Of a stretch of 64,000 nt of DNA, positions 11,714 to 38,329 are shown piece by piece. Below the pieces are notes generated by a model. That model worked only from the letters and a program-made list of their open reading frames with translations, searched no databases and had not been told where the DNA came from. Numbering within the stretch: the first letter of the stretch is position 1; each line of letters opens with the position of its first letter. This stretch comes from a virus: positions 32,001 through 96,000 of IMG/VR virus record IMGVR_UViG_3300001683_000016; one strand, given 5' to 3'. The position numbers and the translations under genes are program-made.

Positions 11714-12496
11714 TCACGATAGGAACTTAGCCATGTACGCCTTAGCGCCCTTGACTGTGCTTGCTTTGCTACCTAGTTGACGAGCCGCCGCGATGATTGC
11801 GTCGTCTGCACTCATGGCTGCATCACTTGTGATGGTGGTGTCTGCATCCACTTTCACGTATGTGCCTTGATACACGATTGCAAGTGCTAGTCTCTTTGCT
11901 TTCGTTTCTTTGTTCATCTTAAGGGTTGGCTGTCCGGTGTTCCACCAGTTAGCGCCAAAGTTGCATTTCTGAGCGCACCATAACTTTCGTGCTTTCTTCT
12001 CAGATACACATGCTCGACCTGCTCCTTCTTTGTCGGTTACGCCCTCTGCAAACCATACTCCGCCGTCTGCTTGTGCCTTAGCCAAGTCAACCTCACGCTT
12101 TGCGCTTTTGATGGCACGCTTGTCCTCTCTGCGTGCTCTGTTCAACCCGTATGCAAAGACGTTCACTTCGTTGCCTTTGTTCTTGCCACTCGTTAGAATG
12201 TGGGTCAGTTCCATGCCGTGAGCACTAGGTGTAAGACCTGATGCCGGTGACCAACCTGTACCTATGGTAGTTTGGCAAAAGCGTGCTAGTATGGCTAATG
12301 CTTGCTTAGGTGTGAGCGTGGTGTCTGCCACCTTCTCATCGTAGATGGGGTTAGGGTATGCACCTGTTACATCCCATCGCCCTATGCTCACCTTGGCTTT
12401 GCCTTTTCCTTTGCTGACAGCCATTAGGCTGCGCAAGAGCGTGGCAATACGCTCAATCATCGTTGTTTTCGCTACTGTATCATCAGTTGTCGTCAT
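11714..12496 (-). CDS. Basic Ala/Lys-rich protein, first gene of the early arm
   Basis: ORF track 11714-12523; start at MTTTDD (12496) follows GGAGG; has its own promoter and terminator. Confidence 0.75.
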   Translation of the reverse strand: MTTTDDTVAKTTMIERIATLLRSLMAVSKGKGKAKVSIGRWDVTGAYPNPIYDEKVADTTLTPKQALAILARFCQTTIGTGWSPASGLTPSAHGMELTHILTSGKNKGNEVNVFAYGLNRARREDKRAIKSAKREVDLAKAQADGGVWFAEGVTDKEGAGRACVSEKKARKLWCAQKCNFGANWWNTGQPTLKMNKETKAKRLALAIVYQGTYVKVDADTTITSDAAMSADDAIIAAARQLGSKASTVKGAKAYMAKFLS

Positions 12497-12520
12497 TTCA
12501 GATTCCTCCACACCCTCTTT

Positions 12521-12543
12521 CATTCATTGTTTAAGTAGTCAAT
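12521..12543 (-). promoter_or_regulatory. Early promoter-like motif copy 7
   Basis: cattcattgtttaagtagtcaat. Confidence 0.75.
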
Positions 12544-12577
12544 GTGGATTGAAGCCAAGAAAGAAAGAAATGGTTAG

Positions 12578-13058
12578 CATTACGCGGGTGTGCATTATGC
12601 AAAGCATTACGCCTTGTGTATAAGAAGAGGCATTTTTGCCCCAACCATACGGGTGGGGAATCCAAAGCGGTGCAAAGGGCTGGCGCTAAAGCGTGCTAAG
12701 TGTGAGGCGCGTTATGCCTAGCAGTACAGCGTTTATAGTGCCGCGACTTAGGTGCTTACGTGCATAGGTAAACGTACAAGCGTTACGCAAGGCGTAACGT
12801 GCGTTAGTCAAGCATTACGCTAGATTAACATGGCATTACGCTAAGAGCGTAATGTCCGACAGGCTCGCAGTACCCCATTACGCTAGAGCATTACGCTGGC
12901 TTAGCCGGAGCATTAGCATTACGCTATTAGCATTACGCTCTTATAGCCACACACAGCGCTTGAGCAAAAAAAATATTTTTGGTAAAAAAGCCCCTGCGTG
13001 TCTCATATATACAACAGTCAAGGTTTTAACATTACGCCAACTAAATATAACATTACGC
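12578..13058. repeat. CATTACGC iteron array with hairpins and AT tract (candidate ori, pac or terminus region)
   Basis: 10 exact + strand copies (12578, 12605, 12813, 12834, 12876, 12889, 12917, 12931, 13030, 13051), 1 reverse copy (12847), and an A/T tract at about 12966-12989, at the strand-switch point. Confidence 0.8.
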
Positions 13059-13070
13059 TGTCCGCTAATC

Positions 13071-13451
13071 ATGTCGGCGGCATTCGGTAATGCATGGAAT
13101 GTGCTCAAAGCGTTACCAAATCAGCAAGTTGAGATACCCGGTGCACGATATACTTCTCATGGGCCGCAGCCAGTAAAAACTATGCATCCGGGGATTGCTT
13201 CGTTGTTGGCGAGGAAGCCGGGTGCCAATATACAAAATCCTGATATGATTGATTCGCAAAATATGGAAATGCACATGAGTGGGGAAGAAAGGGGTGGTCC
13301 AGCGCAACTTTGGGACCCCGTTAATGAAAAAATGATAACATTACCTATGAGTGAATCGTCTATGTCTGATGTTCATATGAATGATTATGGCAAAAAGCCA
13401 AATTGGGCGCTTAACTCAGTAGGAAGATTGGCTAACGATGGTCAATCATAA
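13071..13451 (+). CDS. Tagged accessory protein 1 (MSAAFGNAWNVLK|...)
   Basis: C-terminal part of ORF 12852-13451; the ATG at 13071 begins the shared tag; TATA-like TAAATATAA about 25 nt upstream. Confidence 0.7.
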   Translation: MSAAFGNAWNVLKALPNQQVEIPGARYTSHGPQPVKTMHPGIASLLARKPGANIQNPDMIDSQNMEMHMSGEERGGPAQLWDPVNEKMITLPMSESSMSDVHMNDYGKKPNWALNSVGRLANDGQS

Positions 13452-13539
13452 GGTCCTAGATTCATTGGCGACTCATTTTTGTTCCATGTTAAAGAGTAAC
13501 GGGCGGCAGTTCAAAATAGAGTAACGCTATGTGAGGAGC

Positions 13540-14286
13540 ATGGTGGCAGCGTTCGACCAAGCGTGGGCTTTGCTGAAGGCAGTAGAGTTCGACCCTTATG
13601 CTAAGGACATAAAGGAGGCTCGCCCCTTCAAAGCATATCGTAGTATTCCGACGAAGTTCCTCGATGAGGTGCTTTCCGAAGGCATACAGCCAAGAAGTGT
13701 AGAGCCATGGACGGAAAGGATGCAGAGAAGCGGCCTCAAGCCTGAAACGAGCGCCAGCAAAGCCCATGTTTGGTCACCGAGTGACAAAGGAGTGTGGTCG
13801 TTCATGCATAAAAGAGGTGCTTTACCCAATACCAAAGGGCAACAAGAACTGAGAGAATCATGGCCTTATGCCCCTGTGAGTCATCCTGCTCTGTCTGCGC
13901 GGTATTTTGCTGATAACTTTAGTCGTCGGGCGGCAGAAATAGCAGAGACACCTGAACATATTAAAAGCAAAAAAATGCTTGATGGGGTAAAATCATCATC
14001 GACTATGCCCCCTCAGTCATTTTGGGACGAATATGCGAAACTGAATGACAATCTCCAACACTCGATAGTAGGTTCCACTATATTACCTCCGGGCAAGAGA
14101 TTCGAGGACTTGGATTGGCACAAGGGTCGTGACTATGCGACAAAACCTATACTAACGACAGACCCAATACCAGCGAGATATTTAGATGAGGCTATCCCGT
14201 TAGACTTTCAAGGAAACGAAATCCGTTATACACAAGGTAGTCGCATACCAGATAATTTTCGTAATGAATGGGGGTTTAACGAATGA
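13540..14286 (+). CDS. Tagged accessory protein 2, putative ADP-ribosyltransferase-fold domain
   Basis: MVAAFDQAWALLK tag; AYRSI...LDEVLSEGIQP, GVWSF, ARYFA, DPIPARYL parallel the ART/Tpt1-like pattern of 16473-16946. Confidence 0.55.
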   Translation: MVAAFDQAWALLKAVEFDPYAKDIKEARPFKAYRSIPTKFLDEVLSEGIQPRSVEPWTERMQRSGLKPETSASKAHVWSPSDKGVWSFMHKRGALPNTKGQQELRESWPYAPVSHPALSARYFADNFSRRAAEIAETPEHIKSKKMLDGVKSSSTMPPQSFWDEYAKLNDNLQHSIVGSTILPPGKRFEDLDWHKGRDYATKPILTTDPIPARYLDEAIPLDFQGNEIRYTQGSRIPDNFRNEWGFNE

Positions 14287-14927
14287 ACCCCTTCAACCAA
14301 GCGTGGCTTTTGCTGAAGTCCGAAATGCTGTTGTGGCCCAAACAACTCAACAATTACCGCAGCCCCGACTCTGCCAAGAGCAAGCCTGAATTGAGAATGC
14401 CGGGGCAGTTCAAGAAGCCGAGCGCAGCCGGATTCACTCAATTGTATCAGAAACCCGGTTTGGCTCGTTCATACGTGTCTCTTCCCAATATGGAACAACC
14501 GGGAAGTAGGATTGGTCTGAATAGCACTCTTAATGACCCCGCTATATCGGATAAGGACAAGGCAGGAGTCCAAGGAAGATATGATGAGCGTTTAGCCCAC
14601 AATGTGATGGGAACTGATGTACACGAGGATACGCATGTTGCGATGGATAGGATTGGGGAGACTTCGGACAATCCTTACCACAATGAGTTACCAGCCCACA
14701 TAGCAGAGACGCTTCAATTCACGAGAAGGCCGAGAGAAACGATAAACTCCAATGATGTGGTGCTTCAAGACCTCGATAGCGGCATGTCCCCTACTGAAGT
14801 CGCAGTCAAACGTGGAAAACAAGGAGCGATGATGCATCAACAGGTTAGTGGAACTGGACCCGATAATGGGATGTACACAACTGTAGGGCCGCAGAAGTTC
14901 ACCTATACGGGGGAACAGGGACAATGA
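14283..14927 (+). CDS. Tagged accessory protein 3, HExxH zincin-like metallopeptidase motif
   Basis: MNPFNQAWLLLK tag; VHEDTHVA followed by NELPA. Confidence 0.55.
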   Translation: MNPFNQAWLLLKSEMLLWPKQLNNYRSPDSAKSKPELRMPGQFKKPSAAGFTQLYQKPGLARSYVSLPNMEQPGSRIGLNSTLNDPAISDKDKAGVQGRYDERLAHNVMGTDVHEDTHVAMDRIGETSDNPYHNELPAHIAETLQFTRRPRETINSNDVVLQDLDSGMSPTEVAVKRGKQGAMMHQQVSGTGPDNGMYTTVGPQKFTYTGEQGQ

Positions 14928-15982
14928 ACCCCTTCGACCAAGCGTGGGTTTTGCTGAAACAAGAAGATAATAGAGATGAGATGATTGAAGGTGCATACCC
15001 TCACGAAACTCATTTGTGCAAACATTGTGGCTATCCCATCTATCACCATTGGCAACAAGGGCAAGGTGATGGAAGTCACCCACCGCAAGAGGTGTGGAGT
15101 GGTGAAGATGATGAAGGCGGAAACTGTTCAAGCCCAAGTGGATTTTGTGAGCCGGGAGAATCTCTCGGTAGGACATATCAAAGTGGTGAACCAATTGAGG
15201 CCACACCCGAATCGCACCCGAATCAAATCTACTTGAATGGGCGATTGGTTGATGCGAATGATTGGACAGACGAGCATGAAGCAGAAGTGAATGCTAACAA
15301 AGACCCGGAATCGGGCCAGCCGCTAGTCAATTGGAATGATACTTGGGATTGGAATAAGGATATTCAAACAGGCGAACCTATGGAAGTCGCTATGCGGTTG
15401 TTGAAGGATGATGACCCTCTGCAACATGTTGGGACATTTCTCAATCAATTAACACCGGATGATACGGGGGTTGAAAGATTAGGCGACCATACTGTTCACT
15501 TTGAAGGATTTACTGATATGTGCAATCTGTCAATCACACCTAATTGCCCTGCTGAACAATTACACCAAGAAGTGTGGGATGACTTTGATAAGCGACAAGG
15601 GCAAGAAGCCATCCATAGAGGTAAATGGGGTACGGAAGAAAACCCTACTATTTATTCTGTATATCATACACCGCAAGATGAGGTCAAAACAGGCGAACCT
15701 ATGGACATCGCCATGCGGTTGTTGAAGGGGCGTAACCTTTCACCAGCAGCACGTAAACACAAGTTGGAATACGATACAAAATACGAGTCTAACCCTAAAA
15801 GGGTCAAATATAGAGTTGACCTGAATCGTGAAAGACGGCGCAGGGGCATCTATGGTTCGGGCAACCGTAAAGATGTGAGTCATACCGAAGGTGGTAAACT
15901 CACCTTAGAAAACGAACACGATAATAGGGCTAGGCACTTTAAGGGTAAAGGCACACTTCGCAGAGTTAAGGTGAAGAAATGA
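14924..15982 (+). CDS. Tagged 3-module polyprotein-like accessory protein (Cys/His module, acidic module, basic HNH-like module)
   Basis: MNPFDQAWVLLK tag plus internal TGEPMEVAMRLLK (15368-15406) and TGEPMDIAMRLLK (15689-15727). Confidence 0.75.
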   Translation: MNPFDQAWVLLKQEDNRDEMIEGAYPHETHLCKHCGYPIYHHWQQGQGDGSHPPQEVWSGEDDEGGNCSSPSGFCEPGESLGRTYQSGEPIEATPESHPNQIYLNGRLVDANDWTDEHEAEVNANKDPESGQPLVNWNDTWDWNKDIQTGEPMEVAMRLLKDDDPLQHVGTFLNQLTPDDTGVERLGDHTVHFEGFTDMCNLSITPNCPAEQLHQEVWDDFDKRQGQEAIHRGKWGTEENPTIYSVYHTPQDEVKTGEPMDIAMRLLKGRNLSPAARKHKLEYDTKYESNPKRVKYRVDLNRERRRRGIYGSGNRKDVSHTEGGKLTLENEHDNRARHFKGKGTLRRVKVKK

Positions 15983-16476
15983 ACCCCTTCAACCAAGCGT
16001 GGCTTTTGCTGAAGGCACCCATTTATGAAACAGGTATTCCCAACATCAATTTTGTTACACAAGGCCCATTTCCAGACCCTTTTTGGAGGGAAGAGGAAAA
16101 TGTATACGGCTACGTTCCTGATGACCCAAAAGGGAATGCGTATGGCTATTATGATGAAGGAAATGAGGTTGGGGAGATTCAACATATGACACCCGGTGAA
16201 TACGGAAAAATGACTACTGGTGAGGAAAAGGGTGGTATGTATGTTGACGCATTGGGAAGAAAAAAGTCTCCAAGAGAGTCAGATGACACTTTCTATCAAG
16301 AGTTGATGGATAGGGCACAAGCGGGAGAGAACGTCAAGTTCGGTATGCCGTATGTTTTTCCCGATTTTGAGCCTGAAACATATCATGATGGGAGACATAG
16401 AATGGCTGAACTCTTCGCTCGTGGTCATGGTGATACACCCTTACCAGTCAAAGTCATGAGGGGGACTCACGGATGA
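15979..16476 (+). CDS. Tagged accessory protein with ParB/Srx-like domain
   Basis: MNPFNQAWLLLK tag; MTPGEY...MPYV...HDGRHRMA...LPVKV (ParB DGxHR motif). Confidence 0.65.
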   Translation: MNPFNQAWLLLKAPIYETGIPNINFVTQGPFPDPFWREEENVYGYVPDDPKGNAYGYYDEGNEVGEIQHMTPGEYGKMTTGEEKGGMYVDALGRKKSPRESDDTFYQELMDRAQAGENVKFGMPYVFPDFEPETYHDGRHRMAELFARGHGDTPLPVKVMRGTHG

Positions 16477-16946
16477 ACCCCTTTGACCGAGCGTGGGCTT
16501 TGCTCAAACAAGATACGCGTCAAAGTACGTTAGGTGAGTATCATCCTGATTTTCCTTCCCCATATGGCGATGTGAAGTATTACCATGGGACAACAGTAGA
16601 GCCAGCGTCGAGAATTAACTTTGAAGGGTTGAAGCCGACGGAACCTTCCACGCTAGGGTGGAATCGAAAACTAAGTGGAATGTTTCCTAAAGGTGTATAT
16701 GCAACCGATAATAAAGATGTAGCAGCCGATTATGCCCACACGAGAGGGCAAAATAGGAATCAACAGGGTCGAATATTTGGAATAAGGGAAGGGGCACCCC
16801 AACAAGCAAATCCTACAACGCCGTTAACGCCGAATGCGCCCGATAACGTATTTCGATATGACGAAAAAATACCGAGACAGTATCTTACTCCGGTAGATTA
16901 CCCAAGTGAGAAACTTGTCCCATATTTTAGGTACGGAGATGAGTGA
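16473..16946 (+). CDS. Tagged ADP-ribosyltransferase-fold protein with PIP-box-like motif
   Basis: MNPFDRAWALLK tag; RQSTLGEY; YYHGT...EGLKP...GVYAT...AADYA...IPRQYL. Confidence 0.7.
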   Translation: MNPFDRAWALLKQDTRQSTLGEYHPDFPSPYGDVKYYHGTTVEPASRINFEGLKPTEPSTLGWNRKLSGMFPKGVYATDNKDVAADYAHTRGQNRNQQGRIFGIREGAPQQANPTTPLTPNAPDNVFRYDEKIPRQYLTPVDYPSEKLVPYFRYGDE

Positions 16947-17795
16947 ATGAGTGACTTCTCCATTTACGAAGTTGGTCCACGCGACGGTCTACAGAGCGCC
17001 GACACAATAACATCAACATATGACAAAGTAACCCTGATACGAAAAATTGCTAAGGCCGGTATCAAAAATATCGAAGTTGGCTCAATGGTCAATCCTGACA
17101 GAGTTCCTAATATGGCCGATAGCGATGTGGTTTTTCTCAAGGTTCAAGATTTAGCGCCTGAGCACAATCTCGGTGTCTTAGTGCCTAATCGCAGGGGAGT
17201 TGAGAGAGGAAAGGCTGTAGGTGTGGAAAAGTTCAATATTTTTTTCTCGCCGTCCAACTTTTTCAATGTCAATAACTTCGGAAAGAGCCTAAATACGATT
17301 TTTGCTGAATATTGTGGTGCATTAGACGGAATCCGACCCGAAAACGTTAGAGTATACCTTTCTACAGCCTTTGGATGTCCCATAATAGGTGAAATACCGC
17401 AAGAAGATATGTTAAAAACCATGGAATGGGCTAATACGCTGGGTGATACTATCGTTTTGTCTGATACAATTGGCAATGCTAACCCGTCCTTAATTCGTAA
17501 AGTGATGCGTTTAACTGACAGAAAAATAGATGCTAAGATAGCACTACATCTACATCATGGATTTAGAGAGGGTAGAATGTATGATAACTTGTCTGCTGGC
17601 TTTGATTGTGGGATAACTCAGTTCGATTCAAGCATTGGTGGGATGGGCGGATGTCCGTTTATACCGGGTTCAGGGGGCAATTTAGCCACTGAACAATTAG
17701 TACGCTGGGGTAGTAAAGAGAATCTTGATTGTGGTGTTACGATTAAAGATTTAGAACCGCTAATGAAGTTTGTAAATACTAGAATAAAAGTATAG
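16947..17795 (+). CDS. hmgL: Hydroxymethylglutaryl-CoA lyase (DRE-TIM metallolyase)
   Basis: IYEVGPRDGLQ, VPNMADS, LVPNRRG, STAFGCP, LSDTIG, HLH, GGMGGCPF..G..GNLATE. Confidence 0.9.
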   Translation: MSDFSIYEVGPRDGLQSADTITSTYDKVTLIRKIAKAGIKNIEVGSMVNPDRVPNMADSDVVFLKVQDLAPEHNLGVLVPNRRGVERGKAVGVEKFNIFFSPSNFFNVNNFGKSLNTIFAEYCGALDGIRPENVRVYLSTAFGCPIIGEIPQEDMLKTMEWANTLGDTIVLSDTIGNANPSLIRKVMRLTDRKIDAKIALHLHHGFREGRMYDNLSAGFDCGITQFDSSIGGMGGCPFIPGSGGNLATEQLVRWGSKENLDCGVTIKDLEPLMKFVNTRIKV

Positions 17796-18789: not shown

Positions 18790-19053
18790 ATGAAACCAAT
18801 AGATGCAGCAATAAAACTTCTAAAATCTACCCCTTCTTCTCAAGTCGCTATGCAACACGATATGCCTTCTTACATGGAAGAAGCGCTAAATCAAAGCGGT
18901 AAAACTCGTTCTGATAGCCGAAAAAAGAAAGACAAGGCTACAAAGTTACGTCAAAAAATAGACGACCATGAAGAAGATTCGCAAATAATTGATTTCTATA
19001 GACAGAATCACCCTGAGTGGTTTGATTCATTTAGAGGTGGCGAAGGTGAGTAA
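18790..19053 (+). CDS. Tagged small accessory protein (MKPIDAAIKLLK|ST)
   Basis: Variant of the tag. Confidence 0.65.
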   Translation: MKPIDAAIKLLKSTPSSQVAMQHDMPSYMEEALNQSGKTRSDSRKKKDKATKLRQKIDDHEEDSQIIDFYRQNHPEWFDSFRGGEGE

Positions 19054-19579
19054 ATTGAATAAAAGACCAAAGAAAGGTGTTGCAGTAGTTATTAGCATCG
19101 GTCCTAAAATGAAAACTAAGCCAACGGATGCTGCTACTCCTGAAATGCCAATAAAGAAGTATGGTTCAATGCCAATGAAAAAGGCAATGGCTGTTCTAAA
19201 ACAAAGGGGTAAATATGTACCCACAACTGCTGAAGATGAATATGTTGCATCAAATTCTGAAAATCGACATCATCCTATGAGTAATAGAGAAAAGGATGAG
19301 GCGTGGAAAGAGGCGCAGTTAGATGGAAGATATGATGAAGATTACTATCCCGATGAGGATGAAACACCTATATGGAATGATAATCGACAACCAATCGGTA
19401 AACCTGAGTTTGGTAATGAAGGTGCACGTGAAGCAGAAATGAATCAAGCAGAGCGTGCTGCAATAATGGCAGAAGGTATGCCTGAGGGGCGTAGACCTCG
19501 TATTCCACCTCGAACAGAAGGTTTTGACCCTAATAAGCAAGGTCGAGTGCCAAGAGATATTTTTCAAAATAGAAGGTAA
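19046..19579 (+). CDS. Accessory protein with internal tag variant (PMKKAMAVLK|Q)
   Basis: ORF 18989-19579; GTG at 19046 follows GAGGTGG. Confidence 0.6.
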   Translation: MSKLNKRPKKGVAVVISIGPKMKTKPTDAATPEMPIKKYGSMPMKKAMAVLKQRGKYVPTTAEDEYVASNSENRHHPMSNREKDEAWKEAQLDGRYDEDYYPDEDETPIWNDNRQPIGKPEFGNEGAREAEMNQAERAAIMAEGMPEGRRPRIPPRTEGFDPNKQGRVPRDIFQNRR

Positions 19580-19583
19580 GTGA

Positions 19584-19811
19584 ATGAGTGCTTTCACAAA
19601 ATCTTGGCTATTTCTCAAAACCGAGCCAATTGATATGCAGCAAGGCTCAGATGGAACTTGGCGTGCACCTCAGGAAGATATAACACCAGAAAAAAAATTG
19701 TGGCAACAAATCCAAGCAAGAAACGCACAGGCTAGGCAAAACTTGCAGAAACCTGCACAAGTAGCACAACCTAAACCTACACCACAACCGGGGTATTCAG
19801 GATGGATGTAA
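19584..19811 (+). CDS. Tagged small accessory protein (MSAFTKSWLFLK|TE)
   Basis: Tag variant; Gln/Pro-rich. Confidence 0.65.
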   Translation: MSAFTKSWLFLKTEPIDMQQGSDGTWRAPQEDITPEKKLWQQIQARNAQARQNLQKPAQVAQPKPTPQPGYSGWM

Positions 19812-19812
19812 A

Positions 19813-22695
19813 ATGGTATTCAATAAATCTTGGAACTATTTGAAATCAATAAGCGATTGGTCGTCTACTGATAGTTTATATGGTAATGAGTATGAAGATG
19901 AACCTAGTATAGAAAGAAGAAATACTCCAACTATGGATAACTCGTATCAAAAAATCTTACCTCAAGATGACCCAAGATTAGATTATAGAACTGGTTGGAA
20001 AGGTGTAGAACCCGTTAGGGCTATTCGTGTACAATCAAATCATCGAAAGGCAGGTCAACCCGTACCTCAAGACGGCTCTAATATAAATTATGAACAAGGT
20101 GACCCAAAGTTACCGCCAAAGATTCCTGAGATACCTGATGACGATGACCCTGTTTGGGATGACCCCGACTCACGATGGAGTAAAGACCCCAAATCGGGTT
20201 CAAGATATTATATGTCGGGTAAATATGAAGATGGTAAGTATATTTCTCGTAAAAACAAGCATTTTGTTGATTTGAAAAATGCAAAGGCTGGAACTTGGGC
20301 TGCAAACAATACTGTTGGGGATATTAATAATTTATATACTCATAACCAACCTGATAAGTTGGTCTATATTCGTGGGAGTCCCGATAAATATGGTAAAGTA
20401 CACAGAAGGGATAGTGACGAAGCGGATGAAGGTTTAGCAGAAATGTTTATCGAACATAAAAAAGATATTTCACCTGAAAACCTTGTTGAAGTACCGTTAA
20501 AGACTCATTATAGAAACCAAACAAAAGATATGGGTACTCCTGACCTTGGGCATAATAGACGCTCAAAAAGTGATAAAAGCGGGCGAGTTAGTCGTTGGAG
20601 TGATAAACCTGTACCTTGGGGCTACAGCCACAAGAAAAAGGGCGAACCAATGGACATAGCCTTCCAGTTGCTCAAGATGTCTGCTGATGAAGCAGATGAG
20701 TTGGAAGAGCAAATGCTTTCTGATATGGAAAGAGGGACCAGTAATCCACGCTCACGAAGAAAACAGCGAAGTATGGGCGAAAGGGAATCAAAGGCATCTA
20801 TCCATAATTTTCCCGGTTCATCATCTCGTAGAGAAATGTGGGATGAAAAGCAGAAAGAAAGAGACTGGGAACGATGGGGAAAGAGACATGCTGAAGATAA
20901 AGCAATTGCAGGAAAAGACCTACCCTCATATCATGGGTTTGGTAGCGATAGGCTAAGAGAAATCCATCCGGGTGATAGAGGGAACGATTTCTCATCTATG
21001 AAACCGGGAAAATATGAGTTTGACGGTGTAGGTAGGGAAGAAAGACCCATACCTTTTGAGCCGGGTGATAACCTTATGGAGTGGTTACAGCCCGGATACA
21101 ACGAATCTAACAACCTAAGACTATTCAGGGATAAGGATGACTCTAAACATGAGTGGCAACCAAAACCGTGGACAACAAGTGGCCCTATCAATCATGTTCC
21201 CGAAACCCAAGAATGGGTAAACAACCCTTTTGATGAAGAACCAACTTTTCACGGGATACCATTCAATGAAGATACGGGTTTCACAACAGGTGAACCAATG
21301 GACATAGCCTTCCAGTTGCTCAAGGGAAAGACAAGGCAATCTACTCTTTGGGGTTACGACCCAAAAATGGTAGAGAACTTACTCGCAGAAGATAACAGTA
21401 ATATTTTCATCGCCGCTAAACCCGGAAACGATGATATGCCCGATGATGAACAAAATGAGCGTTCGGATAAAATGCTACAAGACCTCGCCGCACTCAAAGA
21501 GGAACATGGTCACTTCGATATAACCAGTGCCACAGGTAGAGCGCAGTGGGACGCAGAACCATCTTTCATGCTCACTAACGTGCCTGATAGTGCAAGGGAT
21601 TCCATTAATGAGATAGCGGAAAGATACGGTCAGGAATCCATGGGAATCTCGGAAAAGGGGGAGAAAGGGGTGAACTACGTTACACCGGAGGGGGAGGTAA
21701 AGGACAAGTTCAGTAGTATGGAGATGCAGGAAAAACCGGAGTACTCTACAGATTTTCCGAGTAGTCAGAGGCTGGCTTTTACGGGTTGGCAGGAAGCAAA
21801 TAAGGCTAATCCAATGCACATAGCCTTCCAGTTGCTCAAGGGTTGGGCAGGTGGTGTTAGAGGTATAGGTAATAATGCCACGGACAACATTTATCATTAT
21901 CCACACGAATTAGATTACGGCGCGATAGACGAATATATGGGTGAGAATCCTGATGCTACTCTCGGTAGTATGGTAACGCCGTATCTACAAGGACAGTTTA
22001 CAAATAATCCTCCTCTCTTTCCAGAATTAAGCACAAATCCGCCAACCTATCAAAGTGAAAGACCTACTCAATTACAAAGCACAGTTCCGGCACCTTTTCC
22101 ACAAACCCCCGAACAATCTAAAGGTGTTCAAAATCTCATTGATGATGGATTTGAAAACTATGAATCTAGAGATAGAACGAGAAAACCCCATTACGATAGC
22201 ATGAATAATGCAGTCAGAGTATTATCTAGAAATTTAAGAAGAAACCCTGCATACAATTTTACGCCGCCGGGACGATTACGAGGCACTAAGGGACAGGGCG
22301 GTAGAAGTAGGCAAATGCAGAACATGAAACTAAGAAGTTTGTTAGATACTCCTGTATCTCAAAGTATGGCAGAGATGAACATACCGAAACAAGGAATACC
22401 AATTGCGGCAGGCGAACCAATGAACATAGCCTTCCAATTGCTCAAAGAGCGCAAGTCACCAGCAGCATTTGCTCACAAGTTAGAGTATGACAAGCAATAT
22501 CAAAAGACACCTAAGCGCGTAAAGTACCGTGAGCAATTAAACGCAGAGCGTAGGAAGCGTGGCATATACGGTAAGGGTGGTGCGGATGTTAGCCACACAC
22601 AAGGTGGTAAACTCACTCTTGAAAGCGCACATGCTAATAGAGCAAGACATTTCAAAAACAAAGGCACTCTCCGCAGGGTCAAGGTGAAAAAATGA
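19813..22695 (+). CDS. Tagged 5-module polyprotein-like accessory protein
   Basis: MVFNKSWNYLK tag plus four (GE/AN)PMxIAFQLLK linkers at 20641, 21289, 21805 and 22411; module 3 DUF3293/SAM-lyase-like, module 5 HNH-like. Confidence 0.8.
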   Translation: MVFNKSWNYLKSISDWSSTDSLYGNEYEDEPSIERRNTPTMDNSYQKILPQDDPRLDYRTGWKGVEPVRAIRVQSNHRKAGQPVPQDGSNINYEQGDPKLPPKIPEIPDDDDPVWDDPDSRWSKDPKSGSRYYMSGKYEDGKYISRKNKHFVDLKNAKAGTWAANNTVGDINNLYTHNQPDKLVYIRGSPDKYGKVHRRDSDEADEGLAEMFIEHKKDISPENLVEVPLKTHYRNQTKDMGTPDLGHNRRSKSDKSGRVSRWSDKPVPWGYSHKKKGEPMDIAFQLLKMSADEADELEEQMLSDMERGTSNPRSRRKQRSMGERESKASIHNFPGSSSRREMWDEKQKERDWERWGKRHAEDKAIAGKDLPSYHGFGSDRLREIHPGDRGNDFSSMKPGKYEFDGVGREERPIPFEPGDNLMEWLQPGYNESNNLRLFRDKDDSKHEWQPKPWTTSGPINHVPETQEWVNNPFDEEPTFHGIPFNEDTGFTTGEPMDIAFQLLKGKTRQSTLWGYDPKMVENLLAEDNSNIFIAAKPGNDDMPDDEQNERSDKMLQDLAALKEEHGHFDITSATGRAQWDAEPSFMLTNVPDSARDSINEIAERYGQESMGISEKGEKGVNYVTPEGEVKDKFSSMEMQEKPEYSTDFPSSQRLAFTGWQEANKANPMHIAFQLLKGWAGGVRGIGNNATDNIYHYPHELDYGAIDEYMGENPDATLGSMVTPYLQGQFTNNPPLFPELSTNPPTYQSERPTQLQSTVPAPFPQTPEQSKGVQNLIDDGFENYESRDRTRKPHYDSMNNAVRVLSRNLRRNPAYNFTPPGRLRGTKGQGGRSRQMQNMKLRSLLDTPVSQSMAEMNIPKQGIPIAAGEPMNIAFQLLKERKSPAAFAHKLEYDKQYQKTPKRVKYREQLNAERRKRGIYGKGGADVSHTQGGKLTLESAHANRARHFKNKGTLRRVKVKK

Positions 22696-23063
22696 GTAAT
22701 TATCCGTCATACCCAACGACACCTCCTAAAAAATGTGAATATTGTAATGGTGCTGGAATTATTGACCCTTATGGTGATGAAGAGGATGTGGCTCAGGCTG
22801 ACCCAAGATATCCACATGAAACATGTTGGAAGTGCAAAGGAACAGGTATACAGACAGAATGGTCATTTAACCCATATATGCCTTCTTTCCACCCCCCTTC
22901 TTTCCCCCCCCCTTCTTTCCACCCCCCTTCTTACCACGCCCCTCCCCCGTCCAAAATGGAATTAGGAGAGCCAACAATTAATTTTGACCCTGAATGGCAA
23001 GAAATGAATAAAAGTTCTAGTGTTGCATTTTCATTAGCGTGGAACTTACTTAAATCAGAATAA
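22692..23063 (+). CDS. CxxCxGxG (DnaJ-type) Zn-finger protein with C-terminal tag (AFSLAWNLLK|SE)
   Basis: CEYCNGAG...CWKCKGTG; PSFHP repeats. Confidence 0.7.
   Translation: MSNYPSYPTTPPKKCEYCNGAGIIDPYGDEEDVAQADPRYPHETCWKCKGTGIQTEWSFNPYMPSFHPPSFPPPSFHPPSYHAPPPSKMELGEPTINFDPEWQEMNKSSSVAFSLAWNLLKSE
22881..22940 (+). repeat. 4 x 15-nt pyrimidine-rich tandem repeat (CCTTCTTTCCACCCC)
   Basis: Direct reading; encodes PSFHP/PSFPP/PSFHP/PSYHA. Confidence 0.9.
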
Positions 23064-24922: not shown

Positions 24923-25102
24923 ATGGCGAAGGGGGCGACGACGACTGCATTAGTTTCCACAGGAGGCTCTAGTAATTCACTTAGAACTACTATACCTATG
25001 TGGATTGTGGAACAATTTGGTTTGTCTGCTGGCTCTAAAATAGAATGGACTTTAGAAGTTAAAAATGGGGAAATGTCTATTTCAGTATGCCCACAGGAGT
25101 GA
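24923..25102 (+). CDS. AbrB/MazE/SpoVT-type DNA-binding protein
   Basis: SNSLRTTIPMWIVEQFGLSAGSKIEW; TTTTTAA about 23 nt upstream of the ATG. Confidence 0.8.
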   Translation: MAKGATTTALVSTGGSSNSLRTTIPMWIVEQFGLSAGSKIEWTLEVKNGEMSISVCPQE

Positions 25103-26076
25103 TATATATGGTAATGGGTATGAATCCTTTTAATAATTCGCAACAACCAAATCTTGGGCAAGTAAACGACGCTACATTAATGGCATTATCTCAACAAGGA
25201 AATCCGAATTTCTCTCATGCTGCCCTATTAGAACAAGCATCAGCACAACAGCAAATGCAAAGGATGGCAACAGAAAAAAATATAGAAGTACCTAAGGTAA
25301 ACTTTTATCCTTCTCGTCATGCTAATCCATATAAAGCAAGAAAACAAGATATTAATCAAGCATACAAACTCTTGGCTCCTACAAAACGTGCTTTTTTTGA
25401 CCCTAGGAGATTATTTCGCCATAGTAAATATATGTATAATAAAGATACTGCTGTGTGTTGTGTAGATGGTTGTAATGTAAAACAATTAATACAACACGAT
25501 AATCTGTATGCTAGAATAACTGATGAAGAAAGTGGTAGAACACTTTGGGATATGTATTGGCAGAATCCAGTTACTGGAGAGCCTGAAGCGTTTATTGCTA
25601 GAGAGGGCGTAACTAGCGGTCGTAAAATGAGGGCTACATATTGTCCTGAGCATTTACATTTGTATCATTTGTTATGTAGGTGGGAGGACCAACAAGATGT
25701 TGAAGATGAAATGAAACCTAGTCGCTTCCGTGATAAAATAAAAAGAGGAGTTAGTATAGTCACAGTACCGATATCCACTGTCACTGGTGTTGATACAGGA
25801 CCATCTCACCCCATGATTACAAAATACGAAAGTTTCTTTGCTGAAATATCAGCAGATGCTAGAGGTAGTAACGGTATTAGTATGCAACATTATACTAATC
25901 CGGTTACTGGAGATAACGATATAACAACTATAACATTTGATATGAGAATGTTCCAAAAAGAATTAATGGAAATGAATCAGCCAAATCCAGCGTTTCAGGA
26001 TATTCTAAACCAACAGGCTCAAGTTCTCGCCCCCGCTCCGACGATACCGGAAGCAGTAATGGAGGGTATGCAATGA
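25087..26076 (+). CDS. Hypothetical protein (CxxxxC...CxxH)
   Basis: ORF track; start probably MVMGMNPF (25108). Confidence 0.7.
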   Translation: MPTGVIYMVMGMNPFNNSQQPNLGQVNDATLMALSQQGNPNFSHAALLEQASAQQQMQRMATEKNIEVPKVNFYPSRHANPYKARKQDINQAYKLLAPTKRAFFDPRRLFRHSKYMYNKDTAVCCVDGCNVKQLIQHDNLYARITDEESGRTLWDMYWQNPVTGEPEAFIAREGVTSGRKMRATYCPEHLHLYHLLCRWEDQQDVEDEMKPSRFRDKIKRGVSIVTVPISTVTGVDTGPSHPMITKYESFFAEISADARGSNGISMQHYTNPVTGDNDITTITFDMRMFQKELMEMNQPNPAFQDILNQQAQVLAPAPTIPEAVMEGMQ

Positions 26077-27715: not shown

Positions 27716-28116
27716 TACCTGTATCGGATTTAATGCAAGTTCAACATCCGGGTTATCGTACTTTTATACAATCTAATACTATGTCCGCTATGCATTATCC
27801 TTTATTTTTTGATTATTGTATATGTGTATCAGAAAGATTTAGACATTATGCATATCAAGAGGCTAATGTACTAATTAATGAAAATAGTCTTATGCATATA
27901 ATAGATTGCATAAAACAATTAGATGATACCGATGAGCCTGAAATAGTATTACCGTTGAGAGAACAGATAAGACATTCATGTTACGAGTTCTTAGAACATT
28001 GTAATGATATGTCTACTAAATTCAAAAGCCCAACCAGTATTTCTTTATTTTATAATGAGTTAGGACAACTCGTGATGCAGACCGCTTTTGAGTTTGCGGG
28101 GGTACAACATGAGTAA
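27712..28116 (+). CDS. Hypothetical protein
   Basis: ORF track; coupled. Confidence 0.7.
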   Translation: MIPVSDLMQVQHPGYRTFIQSNTMSAMHYPLFFDYCICVSERFRHYAYQEANVLINENSLMHIIDCIKQLDDTDEPEIVLPLREQIRHSCYEFLEHCNDMSTKFKSPTSISLFYNELGQLVMQTAFEFAGVQHE

Positions 28117-29509
28117 GCCAGTAAAGATTTTGAAGTCAGGTATGACTAGTACTGGTAGCGATACTCGTATGTATGGACCGAGAAGTGAATCCTCTCACAT
28201 GTTCCATGGTAATCACGAAGATGAAGGGGATGTTTACGGTGGAGAAGGGGGTGAATATCGTGATGCAAGAATTGACCGCAAAAAGAAAGAACGTAAAGAA
28301 AGAGAATCTGAAATGAAGAAGTTAAGACATATTTCAGTAACTACAGCAGATTTACCTCCTGAAGATGAGGAAGAAAAAGATAAAGACTTAGAACCGACAA
28401 AATTCGATAATGAACTTGAGCCTTCTTTAATGACCGGTACTCCGGGTAATTTTGGTGCTATGACTAGTATGGCTAATCAAGCAAGGGGGCCGGGTTTTGC
28501 CGGTGGGCATAATTTTGCTATGGGAGAACCAATGAATATAGCGTTCCAGTTATTGAAAGGCGGGAGAGCCGGTTTTATAGGTAAAAAACCAAAGAGGGCG
28601 AAGGGTGCTAAAGCAGCAAGAGCGCATAAAGAAAGGCAGAAGAAATGGAGGCCATCTACTGGTGAGTTCAAAAGGCCGCCGGGTGGTATGACACCGGCTA
28701 GTGCTACATCTAGAAGAGCAAAGGCAAGAATGCGAGGTATTGCCGGTAGCAAGAAAACAGGGTTAGGTAGAGCACATCTTGCTGTCGAAATGTCTCACAG
28801 AGGTGTAAAAACTAAACAGCCTATGTCGAAAGATGTAAAGAGATATAGACAATACCTAGGACAGTCTGAAGCAAGAAAGCGTTTAGGTAACATACGAACT
28901 ATTTCTTCTACACCTTCTAGATTTGGTGCACGTTCATACAAAGCGGGGTTAACTGGCGGTGGTACACTACAAAGTCTACTCCCCGGACAAGCCCAACAAA
29001 TGAGAAGACCATCACTTAGGTCAATTAGACCTCCACCGTTAATGCCACCTTCTGCACCTAGTAGAGCCACTTTACCTTCACCTTCCATACCGAGTCCTCC
29101 TGTAATGTCCCAACCAAGAATGGGAGTTGGGGTGCAAAGCATGTCCAACCAAAGTCCAACTTATAGACCTAAGTTACCTAGTTCTTCAATACAAGGTGCA
29201 CCTGTAATGACTGGTGAGATTGGAGAAGGTAGTGAACTACAAAAAAGGGGACTATCATACTATGACACCACAGAATTAAGACAATTACTCCTTGATGCTA
29301 AAAGAGCCTTGAACCGTAAAGAGAATAAGAAAAAGGGTAAAGGAGAGAGAAGTACAGATGCTGCTAGTCATTTACCCGCCCATACAGAAGCAGGCCCGAA
29401 ACAGACCACAAGACCTGAAGGCGCTACAGAAGATGCAAATAATGAGCCTCGCACATTTGGTATTAATCCTCTAGACCATCTTACAAGTAGAGGCGGTAGA
29501 ACACCTTGA
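28109..29509 (+). CDS. Disordered basic/Pro-rich protein carrying an internal GEPMNIAFQLLK tag (putative internal head protein)
   Basis: Start MSKPVKILK|SG; tag at 28523-28558, followed by an Arg/Lys-rich segment. Confidence 0.75.
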   Translation: MSKPVKILKSGMTSTGSDTRMYGPRSESSHMFHGNHEDEGDVYGGEGGEYRDARIDRKKKERKERESEMKKLRHISVTTADLPPEDEEEKDKDLEPTKFDNELEPSLMTGTPGNFGAMTSMANQARGPGFAGGHNFAMGEPMNIAFQLLKGGRAGFIGKKPKRAKGAKAARAHKERQKKWRPSTGEFKRPPGGMTPASATSRRAKARMRGIAGSKKTGLGRAHLAVEMSHRGVKTKQPMSKDVKRYRQYLGQSEARKRLGNIRTISSTPSRFGARSYKAGLTGGGTLQSLLPGQAQQMRRPSLRSIRPPPLMPPSAPSRATLPSPSIPSPPVMSQPRMGVGVQSMSNQSPTYRPKLPSSSIQGAPVMTGEIGEGSELQKRGLSYYDTTELRQLLLDAKRALNRKENKKKGKGERSTDAASHLPAHTEAGPKQTTRPEGATEDANNEPRTFGINPLDHLTSRGGRTP

Positions 29510-31923: not shown

Positions 31924-32550
31924 ATGGGTAAGGTTTACGTTATTAGAAAAGAAGGTACACAACCGGGATTTACTAATTCAACTGCTGGTATAGTCGCAGG
32001 TGGGAATGGAGCGCAAGTTATGCTAACTCCGGGTGGCGGGAATCGCCCTGATGCAGCATCTTTTGGCCCTGCGCAATTTGACGATAAGAATGAACAAATA
32101 AGCGGTACAGGAGAATACGGTCCACAAGGTTCTTATCAAAACAGATTTGCACAATTTGGAGATAAATATGGTCGTTTGGCTAGATATGGTCTTGCTGGAG
32201 CAGGTGCTTTAAATTCATTTTACAATACTACGTCTAGTGGAGAACCGGGTGCTTTGAGTGCGGGTGCAATGGGTGGCTACACAGGATGGCTAGGTTCAGG
32301 AGGTACTGAAAGAGGCGCTGCAAACTTAGGAAGTCGATTCGGTGCACGTTTAGATAGAAGAAATACTACTGGTGAAATTAGTGAACAAGAGGAAGAAGGA
32401 GAAGAAGTCGGTCCTGATGGTAATAATCCAATAACGTCAGCATTGGATAGTTTACGGCCTAAGAAGGTCGTTGGACCTAAACAAACTACTCTAAATGATT
32501 TTGAAAATAATAATAATAAATATAACATGAATAATTTGCGTGGTTATTAA
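31924..32550 (+). CDS. Gly-rich putative ejection or pilot protein with C-terminal PIP-box-like motif
   Basis: MGKVYVIRK|EG; Gly-zipper helices; KQTTLNDF. Confidence 0.6.
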   Translation: MGKVYVIRKEGTQPGFTNSTAGIVAGGNGAQVMLTPGGGNRPDAASFGPAQFDDKNEQISGTGEYGPQGSYQNRFAQFGDKYGRLARYGLAGAGALNSFYNTTSSGEPGALSAGAMGGYTGWLGSGGTERGAANLGSRFGARLDRRNTTGEISEQEEEGEEVGPDGNNPITSALDSLRPKKVVGPKQTTLNDFENNNNKYNMNNLRGY

Positions 32551-32551
32551 A

Positions 32552-34033
32552 ATGTCAAAAAGCAAAGAAGAAATGGAAGCATTTATTCTTAATATTGACA
32601 CGGAGATGTCTAAGAAATCATTCAAGTATTTTTTTGTAGATATGCTAGGTTTCTTGTACAATCATCATCATGAGTCTTGGAAAGTAGGTTTAGAAGAATC
32701 ACAGTATTATTGCGTAAAGGCTTCACGCGACCATGGTAAATCTGTTTTCTTTATGATGTATGCTTTATGGTTAGCGGCATATAAACCTAATACTCACGTC
32801 ATGATATTCTCACATTCACTCGAACAGACACTTGAACACATGAGATTTGTACGTAATATAATAGAGGGTAGTGATTTATTGAGACATCTAAAACCACAGG
32901 GTAAACCTTGGGCTAAATCGTACTTCGAGTTTTCTAACGGTAGTCGTATGATGGCGAAGTCAGTTGGGGGTGCAACTCGTGGTTTCCACCCCGACATAGT
33001 AGTGTGTGATGATATTTTATGGGGTACTACCGCCAGTGAACTTGCTAAAACAGCAGATTGGTTCTATGGTGTTTTGTTACCTGTACTTCACCACAGCAGT
33101 AAACTGATGATGGTAGGTACTCCGTTTAGTTACAATGATTTGTATGCAGAATTAGAAGAGAAAGAAACATTTCGTGTTGAGACATATCCTGCGATAAATG
33201 AAGAGGGTGTTGCGCTATGGCCTGAGAGATGGGATTTAGGCGCACTAGAACATAGAAGAATGTCTATGCCCGCTATACAATTTTCACGTGAATATCTTTG
33301 TGAACCAATACATGACGTAGCCAGTATGTTTCCCGGCCCTATGTTAGAAAAATGTAGAGACCCGAAATTAGTTCTTTTAGATAGAGCAGAGACAAATTAC
33401 AATGAGGAAGGTGAAGCAGATGGTGTATTTGGTCAACACTTTATTGGACATGACCCCGCTATATCTTCTGACAAAAATGCTGATTTTACCGCTATGACTG
33501 TAATGAGACAAAAACCGGATGAAATAATAAAAGAAATTGTCCATGTTGTACATGAAAGAGGAATGTCGTCAATGGCTCAGAAAAGAATGATGGTGCTATT
33601 AAATAGTAAGTTTAGTCCTGATTTAATTGAACTTGAAGGAAATAACTTTCAAAGAATGTTAGAACAAGAAATGAGAGAATTGAGAGCAGATATGCCTATT
33701 CGAGTATTTATGACTACACGTACAAAGAAAGAATCTCTTTTCATGTCCTTACTTCTCGCATTTGAGCAAGGACATATAAAACTTCCATATGGTGATGAGA
33801 GGAGCAGGGCTTACACTCATAAAGTGGAACAAGAATTGAATAGATTCGGTATGCAGAAAAGTGGAAAGTTAGAAAGTGTGGGCGTTCATGACGATTTGGC
33901 TATGAGTCTTGCGCTTGCTAATTGGGCTTCTAAAGAGTTCAAAGGTAGCGTTACACTCTTAGATGATTATATGCCCGGATTTGATGAGTGGTTCGCAGGG
34001 GATAGCAAAACAGACTCTCTGATGATACCTTGA
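32552..34033 (+). CDS. terL: Terminase large subunit
   Basis: ASRDHGKS (Walker A), RGFHPDIVVCDD (Walker B), VGTP, LWPERW, GHDPA...DFTA, HDDLAMSLALA nuclease motifs. Confidence 0.95.
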   Translation: MSKSKEEMEAFILNIDTEMSKKSFKYFFVDMLGFLYNHHHESWKVGLEESQYYCVKASRDHGKSVFFMMYALWLAAYKPNTHVMIFSHSLEQTLEHMRFVRNIIEGSDLLRHLKPQGKPWAKSYFEFSNGSRMMAKSVGGATRGFHPDIVVCDDILWGTTASELAKTADWFYGVLLPVLHHSSKLMMVGTPFSYNDLYAELEEKETFRVETYPAINEEGVALWPERWDLGALEHRRMSMPAIQFSREYLCEPIHDVASMFPGPMLEKCRDPKLVLLDRAETNYNEEGEADGVFGQHFIGHDPAISSDKNADFTAMTVMRQKPDEIIKEIVHVVHERGMSSMAQKRMMVLLNSKFSPDLIELEGNNFQRMLEQEMRELRADMPIRVFMTTRTKKESLFMSLLLAFEQGHIKLPYGDERSRAYTHKVEQELNRFGMQKSGKLESVGVHDDLAMSLALANWASKEFKGSVTLLDDYMPGFDEWFAGDSKTDSLMIP

Positions 34034-38171: not shown

Positions 38172-38318
38172 TTGAGTAAAGTGTACGTCAAAAAAGGCGT
38201 AGCACAAATGGAACCCTGCAAGATGTGTGGAGCAACTGCGTATGAAGGTTGTAAACAAGCAAAAGGGCTTTCCTTAGGCGAATGTCCATATTACCAAAGG
38301 TACAATACCGGAGGTTGA
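38172..38318 (+). CDS. Small Cys4 protein (48 aa, TTG start; not in ORF track)
   Basis: MSKVYVKKGVAQMEPCKMCGATAYEGC...CPYY...GG*; fills the gap. Confidence 0.55.
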   Translation: MSKVYVKKGVAQMEPCKMCGATAYEGCKQAKGLSLGECPYYQRYNTGG

Positions 38319-38329
38319 GAGGGGATGTT

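Follow-up and report, generated by a model that had tools for sequence, protein, structure and literature searches.

How does a virus come to encode a 960-residue protein built from unrelated parts, each joined to the next by nearly the same 12-residue peptide? The question is raised by an open reading frame (ORF) at positions 19813 to 22695 of a 64,000-nucleotide stretch of viral DNA (positions 32,001 to 96,000 of IMG/VR record IMGVR_UViG_3300001683_000016), which is referred to here as the window and is part of a single 115,554-bp virus record. An initial annotation had proposed that this ORF, and a 352-residue ORF nearby, encode polyproteins whose modules are separated by an internal form of an N-terminal tag and are released as effectors by the prohead protease. 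Having followed up this proposal computationally, we lean towards the view that the tag is an address for loading proteins into the capsid, which doubles as a cleavage site for the prohead protease.

Anatomy of the tagged ORFs

The layout of the 960-residue ORF is given below. Confidence values are the predicted local distance difference test (pLDDT) scores from AlphaFold.

19813 to 22695, plus strand: 960-residue polyprotein ORF, an open frame with a leader, five modules and four linkers
19813 to 19845, plus strand: leader MVFNKSWNYLK, a diverged tag of 11 residues
19846 to 20640, plus strand: module 1, 265 residues, predicted beta-rich core at about residues 62-245 (pLDDT 60-84)
20641 to 20676, plus strand: linker 1, GEPMDIAFQLLK, predicted short helix, flanking pLDDT <50
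20677 to 21288, plus strand: module 2, 204 residues, two predicted helices followed by ~150 residues predicted to be disordered
21289 to 21324, plus strand: linker 2, GEPMDIAFQLLK
21325 to 21804, plus strand: module 3, 160 residues, predicted S-adenosylmethionine (SAM) lyase fold (pLDDT 90-97)
21805 to 21840, plus strand: linker 3, ANPMHIAFQLLK
21841 to 22410, plus strand: module 4, 190 residues, confidently predicted fold (pLDDT about 80-96)
22411 to 22446, plus strand: linker 4, GEPMNIAFQLLK
22447 to 22692, plus strand: module 5, 82 residues, very basic, phrog_6437

All four junctions (4/4) are occupied by near-identical 12-mers of the form G/A-E/N-P-M-x-I-A-F-Q-L-L-K. The five modules have no similarity to each other by blastp (nothing at E<1), which rules out that they are repeats of one another. 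The initial annotation's division of this ORF into five unrelated modules is thus borne out; the positions that it gave are those of the first base of each 12-mer, and the strings that it printed hold one extra residue upstream. At the N-terminus, relatives of module 1 have either a leader of the MVFNKSWNYLK type or M..F(I/V)AV(K/R)K in the same position.

The 352-residue ORF is organized in the same way, with a 12-mer of the form GEPM(E/D)(V/I)AMRLLK at both of its junctions (2/2). Its division into three modules, also proposed previously, was correct, positions 15368 and 15689 being the threonine codon that precedes each 12-mer.

14924 to 15982, plus strand: 352-residue polyprotein ORF with N-terminal tag MNPFDQAWVLLK and three modules, the last being phrog_6437
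15371 to 15406, plus strand: linker GEPMEVAMRLLK
15692 to 15727, plus strand: linker GEPMDIAMRLLK

The tag is also found at the N-terminus of the ORFs starting at 13071, 13540, 14283, 14924, 15979, 16473, 18790, 19169, 19584 and 19813. The N-terminal form is M-x-P-F/I/M-x-x-A-W-x-L/V-L-K, and the internal form is G/S-E-P-M-D-I-A-F/M/W-Q/R-L-L-K. Since the same module families occur behind either form, at the same junction, the linker can be equated with an internal form of the N-terminal tag, as had been suggested.

All tag copies in the window are on the plus strand, where they span 13.0 to 28.6 kb and immediately precede the head genes. ORF coordinates show that most of the tagged ORFs share a 4-base overlap with their upstream neighbour, so that an operon of tagged genes and a polyprotein differ by a single stop codon. 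As in virus polyproteins, a single frame runs over independent units, and a conserved sequence is present at every junction.

Conservation of the tag

The core DNA pattern of the tag occurs 14 times in the window against an expectation of 1.03, and none of 100 shuffled sequences reached 14 (0/100). Five related genomes (92-106 kb, estimated to be 85-100% complete, with capsid proteins 79-87% identical to that of the window) have 6-11 core matches on the strand of the tag cluster, compared to 0-2 for a reversed control pattern. The shuffles and the reversed pattern in the five genomes rule out chance or a low-complexity artefact. An assembly artefact is ruled out by the presence of the same architecture in independent contigs and in relatives of 1012 and 1040 residues.

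A degenerate search of IMG/VR for the linker found 17 stretches, each of which on translation has N-terminal, internal and near-C-terminal copies. A sequence logo of 205 distinct internal copies has its information sharply limited to 12 positions, with the consensus G/S, E, P, M, D/E, I/L, A, F/M/W, Q/R, L, L, K. The P, M and A are fixed in 94% of copies, the L in 99% and the K in 100%. The linker pattern had no match in 185,579 prokaryote species genomes, and at that stringency neither a provirus nor a cellular copy was observed. A position matrix made from strict matches, the construction of which is blind to weak sites, gave no more copies among the structural genes. The tag peptide was not found in the searchable literature, including the main papers on magroviruses.

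Within the 960-residue ORF the four linkers are nearly identical in DNA, synonymous sites included. This could be expected if linkers were mainly DNA or translation elements, acting as recombination joints or as internal starts in which Shine-Dalgarno (SD)-like GGNGA precedes an ATG; position 4 is Met in 94% of copies, and some gene calls begin at the linker Met. Between genomes, however, the synonymous sites vary freely (GGC/GGT/GGA, GCC/GCT/GCA, CAA/CAG, AAA/AAG), which implies that selection acts on the peptide. Moreover, the SD-like bases are replaced by GCT AAT in one linker, and position 3, which precedes the Met, is a proline in 94% of copies, in register with the proline of the N-terminal tag. 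SD-driven internal starts behind a conserved G-E-P are therefore unsupported, on account of the GCT AAT linker and the free synonymous variation, and a mainly DNA-level or translational role is in our view highly improbable. The identity of the linker DNA within the gene points to recombination or gene conversion between linkers, judging from the sequence. Codons that the structural genes seldom use are frequent in the linkers: CTC encodes L11 in 29/46 copies compared to 4% usage, and TTG, GCC and GGC are over-used too.

Module shuffling among relatives

A full HMMER search with the 960-residue ORF against 1.84 billion representatives gave 467 matches, 139 of them below 1e-30. The tag is present in 131/150 of the best metagenomic relatives, a set that is biased to carriers of module 5 because this is the best-conserved part of the query. 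When tagged proteins were split at their tags and the pieces clustered, 123 module families were obtained. The tagged relatives include 128 multi-module proteins, which have 111 different architectures. The largest number of linkers in one chain is seven, in a relative of 1040 residues. A search of viral contigs for a related locus using the 7-linker protein P0123 found nothing.

The module order in the window (1-2-3-4-5) can be compared with 1-2-5 in P0003, 1-3-5 in P0001, 3-4-5 in P0002 and 4-3-5 in P0006; in P0056, module 3 stands alone behind an 8-residue leader. The order and number of modules in relatives thus indicate free recombination, in line with the comparison that the initial annotation called for. 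The stand-alone N-tagged ORF 14283 matches an internal module of the 795-residue polyprotein of locus L004 (42% identity over 187 residues), in an alignment that extends across the tag. A contig with a 92% identical capsid protein encodes a polyprotein that lacks modules 2 and 4, implying that module turnover is fast. The protein P0164 joins a relative of ORF 16473 to the start of the ORF 14283 family via PMQK↓SQLLLWP (here and below, the arrow follows the lysine), which is a Lys-ended junction without the full tag.

Module 5 (phrog_6437) is always last in the polyproteins examined. Its homologues include free-standing small proteins of cyanopodoviruses (Syn5 gp50, P60), which are 66-92 residues long and untagged. 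The two phrog_6437 modules in the window (22447-22692 and 15728-15979) have a near-invariant D-x-S-H ... E ... N-R-A-R-H-F pattern and a predicted hairpin-helix ending, which in the models are reminiscent of a His-Me finger.

Predicted structures and cargo identities

The structure of the 960-residue protein was predicted by AlphaFold using a 46-sequence alignment, giving a predicted template modelling (pTM) score of 0.35. The pLDDT falls below 50 at residues 270-281, 365-514, 663-690 and 855-880, that is, in every linker region, and a 9-residue helix is predicted at each linker. Modules 3 and 4 are compact, module 1 is moderate, module 2 is mostly disordered, and module 5 consists of two helices followed by a hairpin and a helix. 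Module independence was read from the low pTM and the gaps in confidence: the modules are separate domains with their borders at the linkers, with no single fold across them, which is the outcome that the initial annotation had anticipated for a polyprotein.

The predicted structure of module 3 has the fold of the SAM lyase of phage T3. It aligns with 7ock_L with a VIA Z of 13.0 (root mean square deviation 2.6 A over 131/152 residues; the next row has Z 6.6), and Foldseek matches it to SAM lyase with E 1.6e-4 and a template modelling (TM) score of 0.69. Pfam gives matches to PF23780 (S-AdoMet_lyase; 17.7 bits, cut-off 28) and to DUF3293 (20.4 bits, cut-off 25), both below the cut-offs, with E 5.5e-5 for the best relative. 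Across 81 relatives, the only Pfam families detected were DUF5872, DUF3293/S-AdoMet_lyase and HD_4.

The neighbouring N-tagged ORF 16473 was modelled from 14 homologues (pLDDT 71). In the model, the tag forms a helix of its own (residues 3-14), and the segment after it is floppy. Of the top 50 Foldseek matches for this ORF, nearly all have the ADP-ribosyltransferase (ART) fold (KptA/Tpt1, Arr, PARP10, pertussis S1), although these are marginal (best E 2.4e-3, TM 0.37-0.49). Pfam (PARP, E 0.013) and the ESM Atlas point in the same direction; the Pfam match to ART-PolyVal reaches only E 0.09. On the basis of these models, the cargo apparently includes a SAM lyase and an ADP-ribosyltransferase. 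The earlier suggestion that the modules are effectors is therefore supported in part: it agrees with the predicted folds of module 3 and ORF 16473, but fits less well with module 2 and parts of module 1, which are predicted to be largely disordered.

For the remaining proteins the searches gave little. Pfam had no match for modules 1, 2 and 4, the parts of the 352-residue ORF, ORF 14283, or the 473-, 805- and 1879-residue ORFs. Sequence searches with modules 3 and 5 against PDB chains found nothing, and the leads for module 4 in the ESM Atlas were all below threshold; a row for P22 gp7 at 0.87 was disregarded. No MuF-type domain was found.

Lysine-ended junctions in the head genes

The window encodes a prohead protease of the HK97 (S78) type and, just downstream, an HK97-fold capsid protein.

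43967 to 45334, plus strand: prohead protease, S78 domain at residues 22-173, fused to a scaffold-like tail
45364 to 46533, plus strand: major capsid protein, HK97-fold, with SELLK34↓AD

The protease matches PF04586 with 38.0 bits (cut-off 21), and the PHROG matches to head maturation proteases concur. Its S78 domain is bordered by PISILK19↓G and ATFSILK172↓ED. In 58 distinct protease sequences from related loci, a variable N-terminal stretch nearly always ends with Φ-x-Φ-Φ-K↓[G/A/S] before the domain (Φ, hydrophobic), and the end of the domain is always PE(A/S)TFxI(L/I)K↓(E/Q)D, again followed by variable sequence. The TFSILK at the domain end resembles the AFQLLK of the tag. Prohead proteases usually cleave themselves at their domain borders, as in gp245 of SPN3US (PMC10052503).

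The position of K34 in the capsid protein is homologous to MSK102↓AD in the capsid protein of the haloarchaeal virus HCTV-5, at the end of the N-terminal scaffolding extension. The end of the HCTV-5 protease domain has VVSK↓AD at the aligned position. Among the long ORFs in the 50-kb late half of HCTV-5, [SAT]K[AS]D occurs only twice, and these two occurrences are capsid K102 and the end of the protease domain. The capsid protein of HK97, the type member of the protease family, is cut at K103/S104 (PMC10275583). A 1879-residue ORF at 38282-43921, between the portal and protease genes, has TELLK34↓AI, like the capsid protein, and occupies the position of the zeta-toxin/ParB polyvalent protein of HCTV-5.

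Unlike leaders also share a terminal lysine at the same junction. The same module start can follow different Lys-ended leaders, as in MKPVLVKK↓AYLPT compared to ..EPMEIAMRLLK↓AYLPT, and the module starts RQTTL/AQQTL are preceded by AILK↓, RILK↓, VLVK↓, AVLK↓ or AWRLLK↓. Φ-Φ-K is found in the first 16 residues of 64/139 proteins, compared to 6.7% of control stretches. Many polyproteins carry a second, non-helical type of leader, M-x-x-(I/V)-(L/A)-V-K-K or similar, which is interchangeable with the 12-mer before the same module.

These leaders bear on the possibility that the tag is a membrane-binding amphipathic helix, comparable to the N-termini of MinD, FtsA and Arf, which would tether the proteins to the host membrane beside the products of a membrane/GTPase cassette at 23.2-26.7 kb. 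The tag helix has a hydrophobic moment of 0.3-0.6, and membrane-protein genes are located directly downstream. A membrane helix would however be expected to drift widely in sequence, whereas A7, L11 and K12 are 94-100% fixed. Nor are the alternative leaders amphipathic, and nine residues are very short for a membrane anchor. A membrane tether therefore seems to us a very doubtful explanation.

The tags could also be cut by a different enzyme, such as a host protease or the HExxH protein encoded by tagged ORF 14283, and not necessarily in capsids. ORF 14283-14927 carries HEDTH, and two modules of L004 carry HETMH followed by (N/I)ELPAH; from these motifs, the HExxH cargo is possibly a minimal zinc metallopeptidase. 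The HExxH module nevertheless has no family match, and its homologues were found in two other proteins only. By comparison, the S78 protease and the tags occur together in 5/5 near-complete related genomes, the domain borders of this protease hold the motif, and the tagged genes share a late operon with the head genes. Cleavage by another enzyme is thus rather improbable.

A model for loading and release

From the sequence evidence we infer a mechanism in two stages. The 12-residue amphipathic helix would address proteins to the assembling capsid, and the virus's own prohead protease, of the HK97 (S78) type, would cut at the end of this helix, Φ-L-K. In single-module genes the tag is N-terminal, and the 960- and 352-residue ORFs would bring several cargo modules into the capsid in each chain, with a tag at each junction. 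Inside the prohead, the protease would cut after each Lys and free small, partly disordered proteins, which would exit with the DNA at infection. The predicted cargo includes the SAM-lyase-fold module, the basic phrog_6437 module, and the ADP-ribosyltransferase-fold protein from the neighbouring gene.

The model also has a bearing on the evolution of the locus. Because every junction has the same peptide and, within a gene, nearly the same 30 bases, modules could be fused, split, lost or swapped by recombination with their function kept. Such free exchange at the tags would explain the great variety of architectures.

Several observations weigh against the combined loading and cleavage model. 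The Pfam matches of the putative enzymes are under the curated cut-offs, orphans make up most of the modules, and disorder is predicted for module 2. As noted, the best 150 relatives are biased to module 5. The N-terminus of the capsid protein is conserved throughout, so that conservation of ELLK alone carries no weight, and Φ-L-K is so short that some occurrences must be due to chance (there are seven in the 1879-residue ORF). All 12 residues of the tag are conserved, although a bare cleavage site would need only 3-4, and some tag copies are located 2-16 residues before a C-terminus, where no product follows that could be freed. Binding may therefore be the main, or even the only, role of the tag.

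If binding were the only role, the proteins would stay whole, as true multi-domain 'polyvalent' proteins, and the peptide would be a helix that docks to the inner face of the HK97-fold shell or to the scaffold. The conservation of the complete 12-mer, rather than merely its last three residues, and the C-terminal copies that lack a downstream module fit this explanation, as does the amphipathic nature of the helices; encapsulin shells, which have the same fold, load their cargo via short peptides (PMC8346489). It does not account for the M..ILVKK leaders, which are not helical tags yet end in Lys at the identical junction, nor for the presence of the same Φ-x-Φ-L-K at the borders of the protease domain. 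In addition, fusion and fission at the tag appear to be neutral, and the invariant terminal Lys matches the Lys of the HK97 cut site. Docking without cleavage is thus unlikely, although it deserves serious consideration.

The 12-residue conservation and the C-terminal copies are most simply accommodated by a binding helix that ends in a cut site. The C-terminal copies indicate that the tag is not a cleavage site alone; it probably acts as a binding (loading) peptide as well.

Comparison with known systems

The Alt protein of phage T4 is an ADP-ribosyltransferase with a capsid-targeting leader, which is cut by gp21. The nearest functional analogue of the system proposed here is indeed that of T4: in both, a leader of ~10-12 residues is found on unrelated proteins and ends in what is, or here would be, the cut site of the virus's own head protease, and the cargo, which in T4 is packed and injected, includes an ADP-ribosyltransferase. 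To our knowledge, head-targeting leaders have been described in T4 and in a small number of jumbo phages, in each case with one leader per protein. The capsid-targeting sequence of T4 is present on IPI-III and Alt and is removed by the prohead protease gp21 (PMC3012670, PMC9026906). The system described here is not a member of the T4 group, as its protease is of the S78/HK97 type and it has neither sequence nor protease homology to T4. Cleavage by gp21 is at (L/I)-x-E, whereas the cut proposed here is after Φ-L-K. Furthermore, the tag here is also internal (up to 7 per chain) and C-terminal, and the host is archaeal.

In the jumbo phages phiKZ, 201phi2-1 and SPN3US, head and ejection proteins mature by proteolysis, and in SPN3US propeptides are removed at 13/14 sites (PMC10052503, PMC7411985). 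The similarity is that many proteins inside the head have cleavage sites with a short consensus, several of them per chain, and that the protease cuts itself. In the jumbo phages, however, degradation of the N-terminal propeptides leaves a single mature product. In them, as in T4, a precursor yields one product, whereas here each segment between tags resembles a product and the junctions are conserved 12-mers.

Iyer, Burroughs, Anand, de Souza and Aravind reportedly described polyvalent proteins of phages and conjugative elements in 2017 (J Bacteriol). These proteins too are variable chains of unrelated anti-host domains that are delivered with the DNA, but they lack a standard connector and presumably work as single chains; the connector here is standard and presumably cleavable. 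HCTV-5 has the classical polyvalent arrangement, with ADP-ribosyltransferase, MuF-like and zeta-toxin/ParB genes between portal and protease.

Encapsulins resemble the present system in having a short conserved peptide on unrelated cargo and an HK97-fold shell (PMC8346489, PMC10960027). Their loading peptides, unlike the tag, are usually C-terminal and are not cut, and encapsulins are cellular compartments without DNA. Finally, the anti-restriction (Dar) proteins of phage P1 are loaded during capsid assembly and some are N-terminally processed (PMC9024508, PMC12810830), but they are loaded via specific partners (DarA/Hdf), with no common peptide tag and no polyproteins.

Other tagged genes and genome setting

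The remaining tagged genes of the window, and the head genes located beside them, are as follows.

13071 to 13451, 13540 to 14286 and 14283 to 14927, plus strand: three N-tagged single-module ORFs
15979 to 16476 and 16473 to 16946, plus strand: two N-tagged ORFs
18790 to 19053, 19169 to 19579 and 19584 to 19811, plus strand: three ORFs with diverged N-terminal tags
22692 to 23063, plus strand: 123-residue ORF with a DnaJ-type CxxCxGxG zinc finger and a C-terminal tag at 23019-23054 (..AWNLLKSE, then stop)
28088 to 29509, plus strand: conserved 473-residue ORF beside the packaging genes, with an internal tag at 28523-28558 and a basic C-terminal part
32540 to 34033, in the window: large terminase
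35258 to 37006, in the window: portal

The 473-residue ORF is present in 11 of the related loci that were examined, and has a leader of the non-helical type, MSKPVKILK↓S, at 28109-28135. Outside the window, and far from the tag cluster, a 222-residue ORF on the minus strand (positions 19749-20416 of the genome) starts with MTIHDAWAFLK↓EE and is thus also tagged; it has no Pfam match. In ORF 25087-26076, relatives from loci L003, L007, L010, L014 and L103 hold a tag-like DI(K/R)QAY(K/R)LLK↓PTKRS, while the window reads ..QAYKLLAPTKR, without the Lys. This stretch is probably not a working tag.

The cargo cluster (12000-16000) has a G+C content of 0.47, compared to about 0.38-0.42 in the rest of the window. 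An untagged HMGL-like gene at 16947-17795 (PF00682, E 1.5e-25) lies inside the cluster, with its first base directly after the stop codon of tagged ORF 16473; it may be an auxiliary metabolic gene. Between terminase and portal, ORF 34114-35256 has weak matches to LAGLIDADG/HNH endonucleases (Pfam E 0.007, below the cut-off; PHROG E 3.8e-7), and the head module of HCTV-5 contains annotated HNH and LAGLIDADG endonuclease genes.

The nearest relatives of the window's capsid protein are those of the haloarchaeal tailed viruses HCTV-5 and HVTV-1 (31-34% identity) and of methanogen viruses. A capsid closest to these two groups is the signature reported for magroviruses, which are viruses of Marine Group II archaea (PMC5434244). 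In IMG/VR, >600 contigs encode a related capsid protein, the best 80 being 77-100% identical.

Implications

Magroviruses are among the most abundant viruses of the surface ocean. If our reading is correct, an internal tag that joins unrelated cargo would give a tailed virus a new means of organizing and evolving its injected proteins, and would be the first such system in an archaeal virus. The tag also offers a direct way to learn which proteins uncultured magroviruses bring into Marine Group II archaea; SAM lyases and ADP-ribosyltransferases are typical enzymes of counter-defence or host takeover. A peptide of 12 residues that both loads cargo into an HK97-fold shell and releases it might in addition be of use in engineered protein containers.

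More tentatively, since the balance is slightly against so broad a statement, any protein that gains the universal 12-residue tag would be packed, cut free and delivered to the next host, with the DNA of the tag serving as a joint at which cassettes are swapped. If true, magroviruses would have a natural plug-and-play cargo system built on an HK97-fold capsid.

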